A stretch of 64,000 bases of DNA from a phage, in the NCBI GenBank assembly GCA_024572335.1, contig GCA_024572335.1_3052.1, one strand, 5' to 3'. The position numbers and the translations under genes were made by a program. This document shows, in pieces, positions 3,499-63,522 of the stretch. How positions within the stretch are numbered: the stretch's first letter is position 1; every line of letters starts with the position of its first letter. Below the pieces are notes generated by a model, which worked only from the letters and a program-made list of their open reading frames with translations, did not search any database and was not told the origin of the DNA.

Positions 3499-3504
3499 AT
3501 AGCC

Positions 3505-4824
3505 TCACACATAAAACACATCATAACGACCACGTGTTACACCAACATAAAGAAGCTGCTGAGCTAGTTCAGCATCTGCATAATGAATACAAGGCGTATA
3601 AATGAAAGCACGGTCTACAGACATACCCTGAGCTTTATGGAATGTTGATGCAGGAAGCGCTTTCACTTTACTAAACTGTGATTTAGCATCCCAAAAATCA
3701 CTCCACGGAGCTTTTCCGCCTTTATTCCAATTTTTATAAGTTTCTGCCGTTTTACCTAAAAACAGGTTAAACTTATATAGCTCTTCATCAGATGAAATTA
3801 TTTTAATCTTTTCACGATAATATTCATCATCGCCGTAAGTTTCTACTGTTAAATCCCAATGACGAATTAAGTATTCTCCAGGAACACCACGAGCTTTAAC
3901 AAACGTTGATGTATACTCTGCTTCTATAATACGAACTAATTGTCCATTATTAAAAATAATTTCTGATACAGGCTTTCCATCAATTTTATATGTTTTAATT
4001 AACGGTTCTTGCATTACAATAATTTCACCGACAATAAAATCTTTATCAGTTTCAAAAATCTTTTTACGAATAATGCTATTTAACTTATCAACAGATTTAT
4101 TCGTAAATGCCATTACGCGATTTTCAAACAAATCATCTAGTGATTTGACGATTGAAAAATAATTTACCATAAAATCGCGTAAAGCGGTATCACCAGTAAA
4201 TCCACGTACTCCATGACCGTCAACAACTTTATCATAAATCCACTTACCGTTACGAACGTCAGTAGCTACATCAATAATAGGAGCATTACTGCGTTTAACT
4301 TCAGTGAGTTCACACTGATAAAAATCTTTGTGTGTAAAGAATGGACTGATATAAGCAGTATTTTCTCCTGGATCAACAGGTCTAATTTGCTTATTATCAC
4401 CTATTCCAATTATAGTACACCACGGTGGGATAGTTGAAAGCAGAATTTTAAATAGCTTTCTATCATACATTGACACTTCGTCGCAGATTAATACCCTGCA
4501 TTTAGCTAAATCTGGTACTTCCTTCTGTTCAAAAAGAACGTTTTCTTCATACGTAACTGGGTTAATTTTAAGAATACTGTGAATAGTACTCGCTTCTTTC
4601 CCCGACAGTTTTGAAAGAATCTTTTTAGCTGCATGTGTAGGAGCTGCCAAAATGATACCAGTTTCGCCTGTTGATATTAAAGCTTCAATGATGAACTTAG
4701 TAAGAGTAGTCTTACCAGTACCAGCAGGTCCATTAATAGTTACATGATGTTTCTTTTCTTTAATAGCCCTCATAACGATGTTAAAGGCATTTTTCTGGCC
4801 TTCTGTCAAATCATCAAATGTCAT
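3505..4824 (-). CDS. dda: Dda DNA helicase (SF1B)
   Basis: 439 aa; Walker A GPAGTGKTT, Walker B CDEVSMYD; N-terminus matches recalled T4 Dda. Confidence 0.9.
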   Translation of the reverse strand: MTFDDLTEGQKNAFNIVMRAIKEKKHHVTINGPAGTGKTTLTKFIIEALISTGETGIILAAPTHAAKKILSKLSGKEASTIHSILKINPVTYEENVLFEQKEVPDLAKCRVLICDEVSMYDRKLFKILLSTIPPWCTIIGIGDNKQIRPVDPGENTAYISPFFTHKDFYQCELTEVKRSNAPIIDVATDVRNGKWIYDKVVDGHGVRGFTGDTALRDFMVNYFSIVKSLDDLFENRVMAFTNKSVDKLNSIIRKKIFETDKDFIVGEIIVMQEPLIKTYKIDGKPVSEIIFNNGQLVRIIEAEYTSTFVKARGVPGEYLIRHWDLTVETYGDDEYYREKIKIISSDEELYKFNLFLGKTAETYKNWNKGGKAPWSDFWDAKSQFSKVKALPASTFHKAQGMSVDRAFIYTPCIHYADAELAQQLLYVGVTRGRYDVFYV

Positions 4825-10330: not shown

Positions 10331-11670
<1,340 letters not shown>

Positions 11671-44594: not shown

Positions 44595-45122
44595 TTATGC
44601 GAGTACCGTCTTTAACCGTTCTTCAAACTTCCGAAGAGTATTTTGGCGTTCAGCTCTTTGCTTTTTGTAAGTTTCAATACGCTCTGAAATGAGAGTGTAT
44701 CGCTCATTTACTGATTCTTTCATAAAATCAGGAATTTCACGAGAAGCTTTAATCTCGTCAAATTTATCAATAACAGCTTGCTCTTCAGCAATTAAGTTAT
44801 CATACATTAAAATATCTTTCTTGATAAACTCAATATCTTCTTGAGTTACACGAGATAATTTAGATGCTTTATCCTTTTTGTACTGTTCGTTAGTATCACG
44901 AGACCAGTGTAATGTACGATTTTTATTCGTGTTCTTGTAAATTTCTACAATACCAATCTCATCGATAATAACGATCCAATTCCAACGGGATTTGTAAATT
45001 TGTCCTCCATCAACAGTGATTTCACCACCGATTGAGACATCATTAAAGAACTTGCTTTGAGCTTCAGATTTAAATTTACCATCGTTATAATTTATCAGGT
45101 TGAAAATATCTTTAGCGTTCAT
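44595..45122 (-). CDS. Hypothetical protein with helical C-terminus
   Basis: 175 aa; strong SD GGAGG; own early promoter. Confidence 0.5.
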   Translation of the reverse strand: MNAKDIFNLINYNDGKFKSEAQSKFFNDVSIGGEITVDGGQIYKSRWNWIVIIDEIGIVEIYKNTNKNRTLHWSRDTNEQYKKDKASKLSRVTQEDIEFIKKDILMYDNLIAEEQAVIDKFDEIKASREIPDFMKESVNERYTLISERIETYKKQRAERQNTLRKFEERLKTVLA

Positions 45123-45484: not shown

Positions 45485-45585
45485 CTTTACCTCCATTTAC
45501 CAGTTTAATTCTAGTCATCTTTTTAATGGCAGTCCATATAATCTATTTCTGAACTGCCTTTTTGTCTTAGAAGTCCTCTTATGAA

Positions 45586-46554
45586 TTATTTCAGAAGAGT
45601 AACCTCAGCGATTTCTTCCCAACCGTTTTTGTCGGTCATAATAAAGTCAGCAAGATAAAGCGCAGTACGCAGTGAAACATTGCGTAAACGATTAACATTG
45701 ACTTTCATCCATGATAATGCTTTATAAGTTTCTTCATCAGAAAGACCGCGCTTTTGCATCATGTCAGTTGAAAGAATAACATCTTCAACCCTGACCATAA
45801 TTTCTTCATTAGTGTGAACACCCAAATCCAAATAAACTGAGCGGGACACTAATGCTTGTAAATGCGGAGCAAGTTTAGTACCACGGTCTAATTCGCGGTC
45901 AATGTCAACGTTTGTGATAAAAACAATCGTTCCTTTAAATTCAAACTCACGCTCAATGCCTTTTTCTTCTAAGTAAGAAGATGTGGTGCTCCAGCAGACT
46001 TTACGGGTCTCTCCAGTGTCCAGAGCAGCTTTCAGAAGATTAAGAATGTCCATATCAGAGAAAACATCCACATCATCAATCAAAAGGACAGAATTCTCTT
46101 CACGATTATTCCAAAGCTGTTCATAAAGACCAATACCAGAGATTTTACCATTAATGCTTTTATATTCAATGTATCCAATATCATTTGCTTTATTTAAAGC
46201 TTTATCTAAAGAATACGTTTTACCAATACCCGCCGCACCAGAGATAATTAATGAACGAATGTTTCCGTTAATAATACCATTCGTCATCATTCCCATAACA
46301 TTAAATCTTTTATTAATGCGGGTTTTCATATCTTCATACGATTCTTTAACTTCTTCAACTTTTACACCATCATATGAAATGTCTGATTTATAAACCCAAA
46401 CACCGCGACGTTTACCGTCAATTTCAACAAAAACTTTACCATCTCCTTGTGCATCTACCGGAGCATTATCTGGGAACCATTCGCCTAAGAGCTCAAAAGT
46501 TCCAGAGATTTCTTTACCGAAGTAGATACCCTTATTGATAGTTACAGTTTTCAT
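45586..46554 (-). CDS. AAA+/P-loop ATPase
   Basis: Walker A GAAGIGKT, Walker B VLLIDDVD, sensor-1-like TIVFITN; ATG at 46554 with SD GGAGA (track start is TTG). Confidence 0.6.
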   Translation of the reverse strand: MKTVTINKGIYFGKEISGTFELLGEWFPDNAPVDAQGDGKVFVEIDGKRRGVWVYKSDISYDGVKVEEVKESYEDMKTRINKRFNVMGMMTNGIINGNIRSLIISGAAGIGKTYSLDKALNKANDIGYIEYKSINGKISGIGLYEQLWNNREENSVLLIDDVDVFSDMDILNLLKAALDTGETRKVCWSTTSSYLEEKGIEREFEFKGTIVFITNVDIDRELDRGTKLAPHLQALVSRSVYLDLGVHTNEEIMVRVEDVILSTDMMQKRGLSDEETYKALSWMKVNVNRLRNVSLRTALYLADFIMTDKNGWEEIAEVTLLK

Positions 46555-46586
46555 TTTATTCTCCAAATCCGTATCAGTTGATAGTT

Positions 46587-46618
46587 GTATAGTACCATAA
46601 AGCTTTATGCTTGTAAAC
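46587..46618 (-). promoter_or_regulatory. Early promoter of the repeated promoter-leader cassette, upstream of the AAA+ ATPase
   Basis: GTTTAC, 17 nt, GGTACTATAC; conserved leader and SD GGAGA. Confidence 0.55.
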
Positions 46619-46648
46619 CGTTTTGTGAAAAATTTTTGAAATAAAAAA

Positions 46649-46666
46649 GGGAGCCCGAAGGCTCCC
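46649..46666 (-). terminator. Intrinsic terminator after the nucleotidyltransferase-like gene
   Basis: GGGAGCC-UUCG-GGCUCCC followed by U6. Confidence 0.8.
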
Positions 46667-46668
46667 TA

Positions 46669-47682
46669 TCATTTATAATAACTTCGGTGGTTTTCAAGAT
46701 AAACCCTCTCAAGGAAGTCATCCCAAAAACCCATGTCTACTTTTTGCTGCATACCGTTCTTAGAAGCTTCAATAGATGCTGCTTCTACTTGATCGACCAC
46801 ATCTTCCAAAAACTCTTGAACAGTTTTAAATGGGTGTTTACCCAGCTTCACGTCGAGAATAAATGGAGCGTCTTGAAGTGGATAGACTAAGTCACCAGTT
46901 TTGTAAATTTCCAATAGTTGGAGTCCACCACGACAAGCATGACTCAGAGCTTTCCAGTCAATGCCCTCATTCGCTTCAGCCTTACGAGCACGTTCGCCGT
47001 ATTCAGCATCAAGTTTATTCAAAGACTGCTTAAGCTCAATAAGAGAAAGTGTTGTCTGATATTTACGACCCAACACAGTGTAGAACGTTTGTGGACCGGT
47101 TTTCTCATGATTATGGAATACCCATTCACAAAACTCGTTTTCAGGGAGTCGGTGTTTGATATCTTCTACCTTAGTTCGGCGTAAACGATCTGGAATTCCC
47201 TCTTGGTAATCAACCCACTGGTCAGGGATTTGATTAACTACTTTCAATACATCACGTAATGCGGCCAAACGAGAACCCTTGACACCGTATTTAGAAGCTT
47301 GCTTGCGGACATATCCTAAATAGGATTTCATGTTAGTCGTATAAAAACGAGAACGGTTGTCTTGAATAAACTTCCACACATCAGGCAAATCAGATTTAAC
47401 CACTAGTTCAGGTGGAGTGTGAAGCATATCCAATGCTACAGTTTCACCATCTGCTGCTAATTTAAAGAAATATTTAAGACTGTATAGTTCATGGTCAATA
47501 TCATCTTTAGTGTTTTTAGATGATGTGTTGTTAGTGTTTTTACTCATGTGCTCTTTGACATTTCCGATAAGAATATCGCGGGCAGGAGGAACAAAGATTT
47601 CTTTAAAATCTACATCAGATTCTGGGGTAGAAGTTCCATAAAGATGACTACCAAAATAGCTTTTCATTACTGTTTTCATCAT
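46669..47682 (-). CDS. Pol-beta superfamily nucleotidyltransferase-like protein
   Basis: 337 aa; N-terminal hG[GS]x9DxD motif YFGSHLYGTSTPESDVDF and downstream VALDML acidic motif. Confidence 0.55.
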   Translation of the reverse strand: MMKTVMKSYFGSHLYGTSTPESDVDFKEIFVPPARDILIGNVKEHMSKNTNNTSSKNTKDDIDHELYSLKYFFKLAADGETVALDMLHTPPELVVKSDLPDVWKFIQDNRSRFYTTNMKSYLGYVRKQASKYGVKGSRLAALRDVLKVVNQIPDQWVDYQEGIPDRLRRTKVEDIKHRLPENEFCEWVFHNHEKTGPQTFYTVLGRKYQTTLSLIELKQSLNKLDAEYGERARKAEANEGIDWKALSHACRGGLQLLEIYKTGDLVYPLQDAPFILDVKLGKHPFKTVQEFLEDVVDQVEAASIEASKNGMQQKVDMGFWDDFLERVYLENHRSYYK

Positions 47683-48140
47683 TCAGCCTTATATTCAATA
47701 ACAGGACATACTTTAGCTTTACGAGCTTTTAAAAATTCAACGATAATCGATTTCTTGGGTTGAATAGGAGGTAAACCTTTATTTTTCCTATCAATGTTTT
47801 CTACGTGTAAAGCATAATCCTTTTTCCATTTATAATCTTTATATTTTTCACGCAAATGTGCAGGAATAACAAATGAACCGATAATAAGTAAAACAACCAA
47901 AAGCGCAAGTATAAATGCCGATGGAAGAAGAGCCCATAAACTACCGAAAATAAGCCAACGTTGTAGGCTTTCTGCACAAATAATTGTTAACCCTACGAGT
48001 ATAGCACACCCAAAAATAGAAACGAAAAATGTAGGTATGGCAATAGACCAAAAATATGCGCATAGTGTCTTAGGTCGTTGCCATTCATCGTTAAACAATT
48101 TGAATAATTTATAGTGCCAAGAGTTTTCATTAATAATCAT
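47679..48140 (-). CDS. Membrane protein, translationally coupled to the nucleotidyltransferase-like gene
   Basis: 153 aa; 2-3 predicted TM helices; stop overlaps downstream start. Confidence 0.5.
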   Translation of the reverse strand: MIINENSWHYKLFKLFNDEWQRPKTLCAYFWSIAIPTFFVSIFGCAILVGLTIICAESLQRWLIFGSLWALLPSAFILALLVVLLIIGSFVIPAHLREKYKDYKWKKDYALHVENIDRKNKGLPPIQPKKSIIVEFLKARKAKVCPVIEYKAE

Positions 48141-48142
48141 AA

Positions 48143-48664
48143 TTATCCTTTCATTGAAGGCGTAACGGTTGTTAAATACTTAATCATAGCTTCAGCTTCT
48201 GATTTTGATAGTGAAATTTCTTCACCGTTTTGGCGAATAGAAACAAAATCTGGATGACGATCACCACCAGCTTTTAAAACACACATATAAGTATCAGCTT
48301 CGCCTTCAATATTTGAAATGATTGAAGCAGTTCCACACGAATGTGGTTTTTGATAAATCAATACAGCTTTTCTTCCACCATTTGACTGTTCATAGGCTTT
48401 TAATACATCAAACAAATCAGTTCTTTTATCAATAGCTAAAATGTTATTTTCATCTTCAATGTTAAATCCTTCGGATACTTCATAAAGCGTTACCCATAAA
48501 TCGCCAATATCAATAACAGCATTTACTTTTCCACGGCTTTCAAGAGTATGACAAATTTTCTTGATTTCGTCATAACTCATTTTAATAATATCATCTCCTT
48601 GACTAAGAAAGATGTCATTTTTAAATTCAACACGAATTAAACCACTTCCACTTGAAATAAACAT
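48143..48664 (-). CDS. Hypothetical protein (paralog pair member)
   Basis: 173 aa; C-terminal EAEAMIKYLTTVTPSM resembles next ORF. Confidence 0.45.
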   Translation of the reverse strand: MFISSGSGLIRVEFKNDIFLSQGDDIIKMSYDEIKKICHTLESRGKVNAVIDIGDLWVTLYEVSEGFNIEDENNILAIDKRTDLFDVLKAYEQSNGGRKAVLIYQKPHSCGTASIISNIEGEADTYMCVLKAGGDRHPDFVSIRQNGEEISLSKSEAEAMIKYLTTVTPSMKG

Positions 48665-48670
48665 ATTTCC

Positions 48671-49228
48671 TCACTTTGAAATCATAGTTGGAATAACAGA
48701 ATCAAGATAAGTCTTTAGTGCAATAGCTTCGTCTTTGGTAAATGTGACAATATGTGCTCGAAAATCGTCAATTTGACGAATAGTTAAGACATCTCCTTCT
48801 TCATAACATTTTGATACGTTTAAAACAGTTTCATCATTCTGATTGCAAGCGTTAGTAATAATAGCATTGCAATTTTTAAACCATTTTAAACTATGTTTTC
48901 TTTCATTAGAATAATAAAAATATTTAATCTTATCTATAAAACTATCCCAATGGATAACTGATAAGCATATTGACTCGCTTTCAATATTAAATCCTGGGCA
49001 TGAAGAATAAAAATGAATTTTATGCTCATCATTAATGCTTACAATTTTATCAGTATAAGGATTTTCAATTTTGGTTAAATGAATGATTTCACTAGGCGTA
49101 AAATATAACATGTCATCTTCTTGCGTCAAACGATACATGTTATTTACTTTTTCTATAGCCAATTCACCAAAAAGTGGACTAACTTCTAATACTAATCGTT
49201 TCATATTGATTCTCTTCGACTCGCTCAC
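48671..49228 (-). CDS. Hypothetical protein (paralog pair member)
   Basis: 185 aa; GTG start with AAAGGAG 9 nt upstream; C-terminal DEAIALKTYLDSVIPTM. Confidence 0.45.
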   Translation of the reverse strand: MSESKRINMKRLVLEVSPLFGELAIEKVNNMYRLTQEDDMLYFTPSEIIHLTKIENPYTDKIVSINDEHKIHFYSSCPGFNIESESICLSVIHWDSFIDKIKYFYYSNERKHSLKWFKNCNAIITNACNQNDETVLNVSKCYEEGDVLTIRQIDDFRAHIVTFTKDEAIALKTYLDSVIPTMISK

Positions 49229-49230
49229 AA

Positions 49231-49335
49231 TTACATACTCCTTTGAATAATATCAATAATGTTGTTCACCAGATTATAGGTAAACAAAGGATAATTATAT
49301 TGAATCATCACATACACAACAAACAAAATTTTCAT
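49231..49335 (-). CDS. Very small hydrophobic ORF (leader peptide candidate)
   Basis: 34 aa hand-translated MKILFVVYVMIQYNYPLFTYNLVNNIIDIIQRSM; SD GAGGAG; immediately downstream of an early promoter. Confidence 0.25.
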   Translation of the reverse strand: MKILFVVYVMIQYNYPLFTYNLVNNIIDIIQRSM

Positions 49336-49360
49336 TCTCTTCTCCTCAGTAGTTGACAAG

Positions 49361-49393
49361 ATTACTATACCATAACCTTGCCAACTTGTAAAC
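49361..49393 (-). promoter_or_regulatory. Early promoter
   Basis: GTTTAC, 17 nt, GGTATAGTAA; followed by 34-aa leader ORF. Confidence 0.5.
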
Positions 49394-62693: not shown

Positions 62694-62770
<77 letters not shown>

Positions 62771-62777
62771 TATTTTG

Positions 62778-62849
62778 CGGACGTGATAGGATTCGAACCT
62801 ATAACCAATCGCTTAACAGGCGATCGCTCTGCCATTGAGCTACACATCC
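62778..62849 (-). tRNA. tRNA-Asn (anticodon GUU)
   Basis: Acceptor GGATGTG/CACGTCC, D-stem GCTC/GAGC, anticodon stem ATCGC/GCGAT, loop CTGTTAA, T-loop TTCGAAT; CCA not encoded. Confidence 0.8.
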
Positions 62850-62853
62850 AAAT

Positions 62854-62940
62854 TGGTGGGGAGTGGTGGAGTCGAACCACCCGAGTCGCAATGACAATGA
62901 ATTTACAGTCCACACCGCTACCTCTACGGGATAACTCCCC
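62854..62940 (-). tRNA. tRNA-Tyr (anticodon GUA), long variable arm
   Basis: Acceptor GGGGAGT/ACTCCCC, anticodon loop CTGTAAA, variable arm TGTCATTGCGACTCG similar to E. coli tRNA-Tyr; CCA encoded. Confidence 0.75.
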
Positions 62941-62949
62941 AAATTAATT

Positions 62950-63024
62950 TGGTGGCCCTGGGTGGAATTGAACCACCATCTGGCGATTATGAGTCGCTTG
63001 CTTGAACCTTCCAGCTACAGGGCC
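62950..63024 (-). tRNA. tRNA-Ile (anticodon CAU, lysidine-type as in T4) or Met
   Basis: Acceptor GGCCCTG/CAGGGCC, anticodon loop CTCATAA, T-arm GGTGG-TTCAATT-CCACC; CCA encoded. Confidence 0.75.
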
Positions 63025-63025
63025 T

Positions 63026-63101
63026 TGGTGCTGATTAACGGAATCGAACCGCCGACCTTCTCATTACAAGTGAGTTGCTCTACCTACTGAGCTAAATCAG
63101 C
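63026..63101 (-). tRNA. tRNA-Thr (anticodon UGU)
   Basis: Acceptor GCTGATT, D-stem GCTC/GAGC, anticodon loop CTTGTAA, T-loop TTCGATT; CCA encoded. Confidence 0.85.
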
Positions 63102-63106
63102 AAAAC

Positions 63107-63196
63107 TGGCGGAGGCGATAGGATTTGAACCTATGAGTCGCCGGAGCGACTGCCGGTTTTCAAGACCGGTGCATTAAACCACTCTGCCACGCCTCC
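63107..63196 (-). tRNA. tRNA-Ser (anticodon UGA), long variable arm
   Basis: Acceptor GGAGGCG, anticodon stem CCGGT/ACCGG, loop CTTGAAA, long variable arm; CCA encoded. Confidence 0.85.
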
Positions 63197-63198
63197 AG

Positions 63199-63272
63199 TC
63201 TCCATACAAGGATTTGAACCTTGGACCTCCTGATCCCAAATCAGGCGCTCTACCAAACTGAGCTACACGGAG
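63199..63272 (-). tRNA. tRNA-Pro (anticodon UGG)
   Basis: Acceptor CTCCGTG, anticodon stem CCTGA/TCAGG, loop TTTGGGA, T-loop TTCAAAT; CCA not encoded. Confidence 0.85.
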
Positions 63273-63282
63273 TAAATTAAAT

Positions 63283-63356
<74 letters not shown>

Positions 63357-63361
63357 AAATT

Positions 63362-63448
63362 TGGTGCGAGAAGTGGGACTCGAACCCACAAGGAAATCAT
63401 TCCGCAGCATTTTAAGTGCTGTGCCTTTACCAATTTGACCATTCTCGC
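63362..63448 (-). tRNA. tRNA-Leu (anticodon UAA), long variable arm
   Basis: Acceptor GCGAGAA, anticodon stem CAGCA/TGCTG, loop CTTAAAA, long variable arm, T-loop TTCGAGT; CCA encoded. Confidence 0.85.
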
Positions 63449-63449
63449 G

Positions 63450-63522
63450 CTGGGAATAAAGGACTCGAACCTTTGCATCCTGGAATCAAAATCCAGTGCC
63501 TTACCAACTTGGCTAATTCCCA
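63450..63522 (-). tRNA. tRNA-Gln (anticodon UUG)
   Basis: Acceptor TGGGAAT/ATTCCCA, anticodon stem CTGGA/TCCAG, loop TTTTGAT; CCA not encoded; separated from tRNA-Leu by 1 nt. Confidence 0.85.

Follow-up and report, generated by a model that had tools for sequence, protein, structure and literature searches.

Gene Content and Transcription Signals

The window, i.e., the whole stretch of 64,000 nucleotides that was analysed, originates from a Tequatrovirus and the region described here is of T4 type. An earlier note made from the sequence alone had singled out three open reading frames on the minus strand, encoding a 337-residue nucleotidyltransferase (46669..47682), a 153-residue membrane protein directly ahead of it (47679..48140) and a 322-residue ATPase (45586..46554). 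The coordinates of all three hold, as does the overlap between the stop codon of the membrane protein gene and the start of the nucleotidyltransferase gene, which amounts to 4 nt. The note had also left room for these frames to be nrdC.x genes of T4, and two of them are: the nucleotidyltransferase is 96% identical to T4 NrdC.11 and the ATPase 99% identical to T4 NrdC.10, the annotation agreeing in both cases. They are conserved ORFs of the T4 nrdC region, an outcome that the note had set against its own reading, and the predicted structure has the nucleotidyltransferase fold. The membrane protein corresponds to RB32ORF096c/RB69ORF104c (phrog_944).

The operon that ends in nrdC.11 is headed by a putative T4-early-type promoter (49364..49393, minus strand; GTTTACA, 17 nt, TG-extended TATAGT), which was assigned by its match to the consensus and its position. 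The first sizeable gene encodes a MobD.1/y05I-like protein of 185 residues (48671..49228, minus strand; Pfam T4_y05I_N, E = 3e-38, and T4_y05I_C, E = 1e-20) with 85% identity to T4 MobD.1. It is followed by a second y05I-like paralogue of 173 residues, RB32ORF097c (48143..48664, minus strand; T4_y05I_N, E = 1e-33, and T4_y05I_C, E = 3e-23), for which a search for a T4 counterpart gave no match and which is absent from T4. The membrane protein gene and nrdC.11 come next, and the operon is closed by an intrinsic terminator (46648..46667, minus strand) with an 8-bp stem, a UUCG loop and a U-run (z = -4.1), at a place where the annotation of phage wV7 also has a terminator. The early promoter at about 49390 would drive a short ORF, the two MobD.1/y05I-like genes, the 153-residue membrane protein and nrdC.11, and transcription would end at the terminator at 46667-46648, with nrdC.10 next under an early promoter of its own. 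A late promoter driving the nrdC.11 operon was considered and rejected, as no TATAAATA occurs between positions 45000 and 50000.

At the junction of the membrane protein gene with nrdC.11 the TGA stop codon lies inside the ATGATG that opens nrdC.11; the overlap of 4 nt applies to the first ATG and shrinks to 1 nt from the second one, which is the start used in T4 annotations. Such overlaps are routine: in the part of phage wV7 that corresponds to this region they occur at 7 of 25 gene junctions. The gene nrdC.10 starts at an ATG at 46554 (322 aa) or at a TTG at 46566 (326 aa) and is preceded by a T4-early-type promoter (46589..46617, minus strand; GTTTACA, 17 nt, TG-extended TACTAT). A scan for terminators 3' of nrdC.10 yielded only a 9-bp hairpin (45528..45558, minus strand, z = -3.0), which is not a canonical terminator because it has no U-tract. 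The proposal that the ATPase gene forms a unit with its own promoter and terminator is thereby borne out for the promoter (46617-46589) and not for a clear terminator.

NrdC.11 and the RlaP Family

NrdC.11 is matched by the Pfam family RlaP (PF10127) with E = 3.3e-11 and 43.8 bits, and since this score lies above the cut-off of 23 its nucleotidyltransferase motif is not a chance match. Together with the predicted fold this substantiates the call of a Pol-beta nucleotidyltransferase. The catalytic motif consists of G11-S12, ten residues, D23-V-D25 and later VALD85ML; the three elements are those described before, and only the spacing between GS and DVD, which had been given as nine residues, had to be corrected. 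Across 133 homologues D23 and D25 are invariant and G11, S12, D61, D63 and D85 are kept in at least 90%. Among the matches listed from two homologue searches all carry PF10127 except one (P0122), which at 19.9 bits is just below the threshold. The AlphaFold model (pLDDT 89.5) has a Pol-beta nucleotidyltransferase core and a helical bundle, and the protein is laid out as the core (residues 1-115), helices (119-150), a beta insert (155-209) and the helical bundle (214-336).

The relation to canonical RlaP was found in the N-terminal part. In a profile-profile comparison with hhalign the two align with a probability of 96% and E = 3.5e-9 over residues 2-131 only, the GS, the DxD and the later acidic position of NrdC.11 matching GS, DxD and E104 of canonical RlaP. 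Likewise, every member of the NrdC.11 clade tested covers only positions 19-150 of the 249 positions of the RlaP model, so that homology does not extend over the whole length including the C-terminal helical domain but over the N-terminal ~130 residues. The C-terminal half of NrdC.11, unlike that of canonical RlaP, carries the beta insert and an invariant YGxRA...DWKAxSHAxR motif of its own, and because of this difference its substrate could differ from that of canonical RlaP. A known system close to NrdC.11 is RlaP as represented by PfRlaP from Pseudomonas fluorescens. Both proteins possess a nucleotidyltransferase domain followed by a C-terminal helical domain, whereas NrdC.11 is ~70-80 residues longer and its helical bundle is differently conserved. 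Judged from sequence and model, NrdC.11 can be placed with RlaP as a distinct long subtype.

Two Pseudomonas RlaPs that are distant from NrdC.11, PfRlaP and PaRlaP, were shown to add one or two NMPs to the 3'-OH of RNA and not to DNA or protein, and RlaP was proposed as an antidote to RloC-type nucleases, with 3'-OH/5'-P end chemistry suiting the enzyme (PMC12776372). The same 2025 preprint named T4 NrdC.11 an RlaP of cluster 5 (PMC12776372), and the nucleotidyltransferase had been flagged as COG3541 in 2006. NrdC.11 is therefore already known as a catalogued T4-type ORF, as a member of Pfam RlaP and under the name RlaP, and the discovery value is small, the genes being catalogued T4-type ORFs. 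It was reported that nrdC.11 of T4 can be deleted under laboratory conditions (PMC9825161), which fits an accessory role without pinpointing that role.

The suggestion of a defence module working through a nucleotide second messenger, or of a phage-encoded mimic of such a module, is not supported. NrdC.11 matches no CD-NTase, cGAS or OAS family in Pfam, and no cGAS, CD-NTase or OAS is found among the top structural matches of its model, so that a cGAS-like fold is not its closest structural relative and the remote-homology check against CD-NTase and OAS that had been proposed came out negative. With CBASS-type CD-NTases, cGAS and OAS it shares only the Pol-beta catalytic core. No MNT, AbiEii or KNTase family model matches NrdC.11 (13 bits against the MntA model, cut-off 60). 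Neither the NrdC.11 sequence by itself nor two family profiles retrieved a meaningful match in sequence searches of the PDB, the searched set apparently being without the PfRlaP crystal structure. Searches of the membrane protein, NrdC.11 and NrdC.10 against NCBIfam and PADLOC gave nothing useful and no defence-system match among the PADLOC models. There is no adjacent effector with a nucleotide-sensing domain, the neighbour being the 153-residue membrane protein, which is not an obligate partner. The region comprises catalogued T4-like early genes and is not a nucleotide-signalling defence module.

The Small Membrane Protein

Hydrophobic segments of the membrane protein span residues ~27-55 and ~63-94, and its C-terminal tail is basic. 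Its motifs are an N-terminal SWHY with LCxYFW and a C-terminal basic KARKAKVCP, and C27, Y29 and C145 do not vary within its family, which comprises 421 clusters at 50% identity. Pfam searches with 63 family members gave no family match, the family profile found no relative in the PDB, and no relative is present in NCBIfam or PADLOC. As a large group of small membrane proteins from phages, the family may merit an investigation of its own.

The conservation check across T-even phages that had been suggested gave a divided result, as the nucleotidyltransferase is present in T4 and RB69 and the membrane partner is absent from T4, where the whole genome contains no gene of the membrane family and the mobD endonuclease occupies the slot. 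An equation of T4 mobD with the HNH gene upstream of nrdC.11 in RB16 was rejected, since the two show no detectable relation.

One possibility considered was a functional module of two genes, those of the membrane protein and of NrdC.11, either resembling Hailong, in which the nucleotidyltransferase product gates a membrane effector, or with the nucleotidyltransferase tethered to the membrane. The order of the genes is that of HalA-HalB, RB69 retains the stop/start overlap with 48% identity of the membrane protein, as does a metagenomic phage contig with 35% identity, and in Gelderlandvirus and Acinetobacter phages the two genes are at most one gene apart (one other gene lies between them in Melville-type and Acinetobacter phages). 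Against this, T4 keeps NrdC.11 in a genome without a membrane-family gene, no membrane gene is found in the flanks examined of RB16, Vibrio phage D479, Miami, AsFcp_2 and four metagenomic phages, and Aeromonas AS-zj, L014 and L020 carry a gene of the membrane family with no nucleotidyltransferase nearby. None of 80 bacterial NrdC.11-type loci contains the membrane gene, and gene junctions with an overlap are frequent in genomes of this type. The comparison with Hailong, made via a review description, also reveals differences. Hailong is a bacterial defence locus in which a tetrameric membrane channel, HalA, is obligately paired with HalB, a nucleotidyltransferase making oligodeoxyadenylate, whereas the membrane protein gene and nrdC.11 belong to a phage early operon. 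No sequence-level relation was found; the NrdC.11 and membrane-family profiles match no HalB, HalA or other PDB chain credibly (best E 0.1-0.6, to unrelated proteins), and HalA is described with a cytoplasmic crown-like extension, for which 153 residues leave no room. Such a module is therefore quite improbable. Superinfection exclusion, abortive infection and counter-defence were the roles considered for it.

On the linkage evidence from T4, the lone membrane genes and the 80 loci an obligate pair was rejected, and the membrane protein is a dispensable, non-obligate partner of the nucleotidyltransferase. It would represent a separate, widespread phage membrane family that merely shares a compact operon, and the synteny would be due to shared descent. 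We consider it very improbable that the two proteins are a working pair where they are coupled, with the membrane protein localising or regulating the nucleotidyltransferase or answering its product, similarly to the Hailong pair, and with T4 having lost the partner at the mobD insertion. The features cited for such a working pair are the invariant Cys...Cys pair and the SWHY motif of the membrane protein.

NrdC.10

The call of an AAA+/P-loop ATPase for the 322-residue protein was confirmed by its structure model (pLDDT 90.1), for which Foldseek gave matches to NSF, RuvB, RFC, Hda, ORC and PspF with a probability of 1.0 and E ~2e-5, while no single AAA model of Pfam reaches its cut-off. NrdC.10 consists of an N-terminal beta domain (residues 1-62) and a part with Walker A (GAAGIGKT) and Walker B (LLIDD), and in the model it has a predicted AAA+ fold including the lid domain. 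G111, K112, D160, D161, N215, R238, R291 and R296 are invariant, of which N215 is read as the putative sensor-1 and R238 as the putative arginine finger. NrdC.10 shares with clamp-loader and initiator AAA+ proteins (RFC, Hda, ORC, RuvB) the AAA+ fold, the Walker motifs, N215, the SRS motif with R238 and the C-terminal arginines, but differs from them in its unique N-terminal beta domain.

A cooperation in which NrdC.10 acts as remodeller or loader of the nucleotidyltransferase appears improbable. Both are early genes, and they lie side by side throughout Tevenvirinae and in Acinetobacter phages; they belong, however, to separate transcription units with a terminator and a promoter between them, and in Vibrio phage D479 a distance of 37 kb separates them. 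In RB16, which has NrdC.11, the 3.5-kb flanks examined contain no NrdC.10, and for the NrdC.10 homologue of Asteriusvirus no nucleotidyltransferase is annotated within 3 kb. The record counts of the two genes differ by host (286 vs 149 in Klebsiella, 59 vs 121 in Vibrio), a relative of NrdC.10 is found in 0 of the 80 bacterial NrdC.11-type loci, and the structural matches of NrdC.10 are scattered over many AAA+ clades. A functional pair was rejected on this linkage evidence, and NrdC.10 would be an independent AAA+ ATPase in a separate early transcription unit.

Genomic Neighbourhood and Proposed Role in RNA Repair

The survey of the neighbourhood covered 80 loci from bacteria or archaea, all of which encode a full-length NrdC.11 homologue. 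RtcB is encoded in 13, Ro60/TROVE in 7 and Pnkp in 3 of them, at least one of the three in 16; the other 64 loci contain none of these RNA-repair neighbours. A relative of the membrane protein or of NrdC.10 was not found near the NrdC.11-type gene in any of the 80. Canonical RlaP is encoded directly downstream of the NrdC.11-type gene in 19 loci, and this placement of the long subtype suggests a distinct sub-function. In jumbo phages an RNA ligase lies 5.4 kb from the NrdC.11-type gene on one contig (L012), and on another (L022) the distance from it to KptA, Macro and an RNA ligase is 1.3-4 kb. T4 encodes pseT, rnlA and rnlB, but nrdC.11 is located ~80 kb from pseT and rnlA in T4-type genomes, and because of this distance the local context of the window gives RNA repair no support. 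The NrdC.11 clade is thus associated with RNA-repair genes, while locally in T4-type genomes nrdC.11 is not.

In the T4 Pnk/PseT and Rnl1 pathway RNA ends carry a 3'-OH after the action of Pnk and are joined by a 5'-P-dependent ligase, which is compatible with the end chemistry that suits RlaP. RNA repair is the likely role of NrdC.11 in T4-type phages. Most likely, NrdC.11 would add one or two nucleotides, untemplated, to the 3'-OH of a broken RNA, probably a tRNA that a host RloC-type nuclease had cut and trimmed in the anticodon loop; the phage polynucleotide kinase/phosphatase would first make the 3'-OH and the phage RNA ligase would afterwards reseal the full-length tRNA. NrdC.11 would share the counter-defence logic of T4 Pnk/PseT and Rnl1 against PrrC, but in contrast to these it would be needed only if nucleotides are lost, e.g., by RloC-type nucleases.

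Alternatively, NrdC.11 might act on a substrate outside RNA repair, by adenylylating proteins or small molecules, as a toxin or antitoxin at tRNA 3' ends, or by producing an oligonucleotide signal. The model enzymes cited here are KNTase, LinB, DrrA and GlnE for adenylylation and MNT and MenT for tRNA 3' ends. A C-terminal half without detectable homology to canonical RlaP and the lack of an RNA-repair gene near nrdC.11 in T4-type genomes are in line with this alternative, which we nevertheless judge unlikely: RlaP is the sole sequence family above threshold, MntA falling far below its own cut-off, and the clade adjoins RtcB, Ro60, Pnkp and canonical RlaP in bacteria and, in jumbo phages, has RNA ligase and KptA in its vicinity. 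It is on balance probable that the three genes are ordinary T4-type early genes, NrdC.11 being an RlaP-family RNA-repair nucleotidyltransferase and its neighbours being independent of it. The analysis shows what the genes are, to which families they belong, their fold, the arrangement of the operon and the linkage pattern; that NrdC.11 acts on RNA and takes part in repair in T4-type phages we infer. The placement of the long subtype in bacterial RtcB, Ro60 and Pnkp loci, often next to a canonical RlaP, supports the idea of a third T4-type RNA-repair enzyme, which would be directed against tRNA-trimming nucleases.

Identity and organization of the region

The stretch shows 96–98% DNA identity to many Tequatrovirus genomes and the genes of the region are already known. 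The 337-aa protein (46669-47682, on the minus strand as is every gene of the region) is NrdC.11, sharing 96% identity with T4 and 100% with phage ime09; the 322-aa ATPase (45586-46554) is NrdC.10, sharing 99% identity with T4, and the 153-aa membrane protein (47679-48140) corresponds to RB32ORF096c/RB69ORF104c. The T4 identities show that the earlier note was correct in its caveat that these might be T4 nrdC.x ORFs, and what it had observed was confirmed except for small details. In many database records NrdC.10 and NrdC.11 are called "thioredoxin" and the MobD.x proteins [quoted passage not shown]; such product names do not reflect homology and seem to have been carried over from the gene labels nrdC.x and mobD.x.

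The upstream operon is headed by an early-type promoter (49393-49364, minus strand) similar to that of nrdC.10. A short ORF comes first, then a pair of MobD.1/y05I-like genes, and the genes of the membrane protein and the nucleotidyltransferase (NTase) complete the operon in this order. The short ORF (MKILFVVYVMIQYNYPLFTYNLV..., 49257-49361, minus strand), which precedes the y05I-like genes, encodes a very hydrophobic product and probably corresponds to MobD.2. The MobD.1/y05I-like paralogues of 185 aa and 173 aa lie in tandem (48143-49228, minus strand). The 153-aa ORF has its TGA stop within the ATGATG with which the 337-aa ORF starts, and the reported stop/start overlap is therefore real. 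The stop codon of nrdC.11 is followed by a strong intrinsic terminator with UUCG loop and U-run (46667-46648, minus strand, z=-4.1), and 5' of nrdC.10 a T4-early-type promoter is found (GTTTACA-17-TG-extended TACTAT, 46617-46589, minus strand), nrdC.10 and nrdC.11 being transcribed separately. The ATPase unit thus has its own promoter as proposed, but no clear terminator of its own: downstream, between nrdC.10 and nrdC.9, there is merely a hairpin with a 9-bp stem and a 13-nt loop that lacks a U-tract (45528-45558, minus strand, z=-3.0). No late-promoter consensus was found in the region. The window also carries a cluster of ten tRNA genes (62694-63522, minus strand), two more than the eight of T4, namely Asn and Tyr, with no segB gene inside the cluster.

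In T4 the slot 5' of nrdC.11 is occupied by the HNH homing endonuclease gene mobD (PMC2988022), which replaces the 173-aa paralogue and the membrane gene, while one MobD.1/y05I-like gene is kept; a profile scan of the entire T4 genome for the membrane family was negative. Homing endonuclease genes have inserted repeatedly at the 5' border of nrdC.11 (window ~47682; 10430-10449 in the T4 locus L002 and 3504-3520 in the RB16 locus L009): mobD in T4 and an HNH gene in RB16, which are not related to each other, both end 17 nt into nrdC.11, and similarity between the phages starts from the nrdC.11 start codon.

NrdC.11 is a long RlaP-type nucleotidyltransferase

NrdC.11 has the Pol-beta NTase signature G11-S12 and D23-V-D25, the spacer between GS and DVD being ten residues and not nine as first reported, and additional acidic positions are conserved at D61, D63 and D85. 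Pfam RlaP (PF10127, "RNA repair pathway DNA polymerase beta family") reaches 43.8 bits (E=3.3e-11), above the curated threshold of 23 bits, and is found in all listed homologues except one that is just sub-threshold. The AlphaFold model, calculated with 133 diverse homologues as input, is confident (pLDDT 89.5): residues 1-115 form the NTase core, linking helices come next, residues 155-209 are a beta insert and residues 214-336 make up a helical bundle. Foldseek matches in the PDB with probability >0.9 are solely Pol-beta NTases, i.e., 3c18, Hailong HalB, KNTase/ANT(4') and LinB. The proposal of a nucleotide-second-messenger defence module or its phage mimic is unsupported, as neither structural match list of NrdC.11 contains cGAS, CD-NTase or OAS structures, no PADLOC defence model matches NrdC.11, NrdC.10 or the membrane protein, and the family is RlaP instead.

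Both the NTase family of NrdC.11 and its proposed role are already known from the literature. The assignment to COG3541 NTases was noted in 2006 (PMC1524935), and a December 2025 preprint placed T4 NrdC.11 in RlaP cluster 5 (PMC12776372). There, two Pseudomonas RlaPs were shown to add one or two NMPs at RNA 3'-OH ends with a preference for cleaved-tRNA mimics and Mn2+, DNA and protein not being substrates, and RlaP was proposed as antidote to RloC-like nucleases, which cut the tRNA and then remove a nucleotide (PMC12776372).

In every member of the NrdC.11 clade tested, the RlaP model is covered only at positions 19-150 of 249, and profile-profile comparison with canonical RlaPs of 255-266 aa gave 96% probability (E=3.5e-9) for residues 2-131 only. 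The C-terminal half of NrdC.11-type proteins carries its own invariant motif, YGxRA...DWKAxSHAxR. By family model and catalytic core, which it shares with canonical RlaP, NrdC.11 is an RlaP, but the partial match together with this motif marks it, as judged from sequence, as a long subtype with a differing C-terminal, putatively substrate-binding half.

Genomic context of NrdC.11-type genes

Scanning prokaryotes with each species represented by one genome yielded 161 loci with full-length NrdC.11-type proteins (identity 33-54%), several of them on megabase-sized chromosomal contigs. Among the best 80 of the 161, RtcB is encoded within 6 kb in 13, and within the same radius Ro60/TROVE is found in seven and Pnkp in three, amounting to 16 of the 80 loci combined. 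A canonical RlaP is near in 21 of these 80, in 19 immediately downstream on the same strand; representative neighbours were confirmed with Pfam. Such pairs of a long (~320 aa) followed by a canonical RlaP (~260 aa) occur in bacteria and archaea (L033, L035, L043, L051, L059, L065, L080, L083, L092, L094, L098, L099, L107, L108 and others), and are absent from T4 and the window. In one jumbo-phage contig an RNA ligase is encoded 5.4 kb from the NrdC.11-clade gene, in another KptA, Macro and RNA ligase lie at 1.3-4 kb, which agrees with how jumbo-phage RlaP has been described (PMC7824862). These contexts tie the NrdC.11 clade itself, beyond the Pfam family at large, to RNA repair. In T4, pseT, rnlA and rnlB are encoded at other genome positions, and their chemistry (3'-OH and 5'-P ends) is compatible with an RlaP step; we infer that T4-type NrdC.11 participates in this repair pathway.

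NrdC.10 is an AAA+ ATPase

The assignment of the 322-aa protein as AAA+ ATPase was upheld by a confident model (pLDDT 90.1) matching many AAA+ clades at E ~2e-5, including NSF, dynein, RuvB, ORC, Hda, RFC and PspF, and by the invariant Walker A and Walker B motifs, N215, an SRS arginine motif and C-terminal arginines; no family was assigned to the N-terminal beta domain. Neither transcription nor the gene linkage examined gives evidence for joint action with NrdC.11. NrdC.10 was not found in the examined RB16 flanks or in any of the best 80 of the 161 bacterial NrdC.11-type loci, and no annotated NTase lies within 3 kb of the NrdC.10 gene in Asteriusvirus. In Vibrio phage D479 the two genes are 37 kb apart, nrdC.10 adjoining gp2-like and topoisomerase genes.

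The membrane protein

It is tempting to regard the membrane protein and NrdC.11 as a pair resembling Hailong, in which the membrane channel HalA acts with the NTase HalB, as the gene order is alike and HalB is among the structural matches of NrdC.11. Linkage of the two genes is seen in their overlap in the window, in RB69 and in one divergent metagenomic phage. However, in the matching stretch of wV7, 7 of 25 junctions have such a stop/start overlap, which is thus normal packing for this genome type, and several findings speak against an obligate pairing: the two genes are separated by a 180-aa gene in Gelderlandvirus-type phages and, in an Acinetobacter phage, by one of 83 aa. NrdC.11 is present without the membrane gene in T4, and the latter was not found in the examined flanks of the NrdC.11-positive phages RB16, Vibrio D479, Miami, AsFcp_2 and four metagenomic phages nor in any of the best 80 of the 161 bacterial loci. 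Conversely, Aeromonas AS-zj and the loci L014 and L020 carry a membrane-family gene with no NTase nearby. The Hailong-like reading is very unlikely on grounds of sequence, of partner size, the membrane protein here being small, and of a pairing that is not obligate.

The 153-aa protein, described as multi-TM in the earlier note, has hydrophobic stretches at ~27-55 and ~63-94, followed by a lysine-rich C-terminal tail. Its family comprises 421 clusters at 50% identity and has no relative in Pfam or the PDB. SWHY and LCxYFW motifs are conserved at the N-terminus and KAKKxKxCP at the C-terminus; in the family alignment (A5) C27, Y29 and C145 are invariant and S7, W8 and H9 near-invariant. These residues at both termini may form a cytoplasmic metal or redox site. 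In one metagenomic contig (L020 219-1087) paralogues of the family are encoded in tandem.
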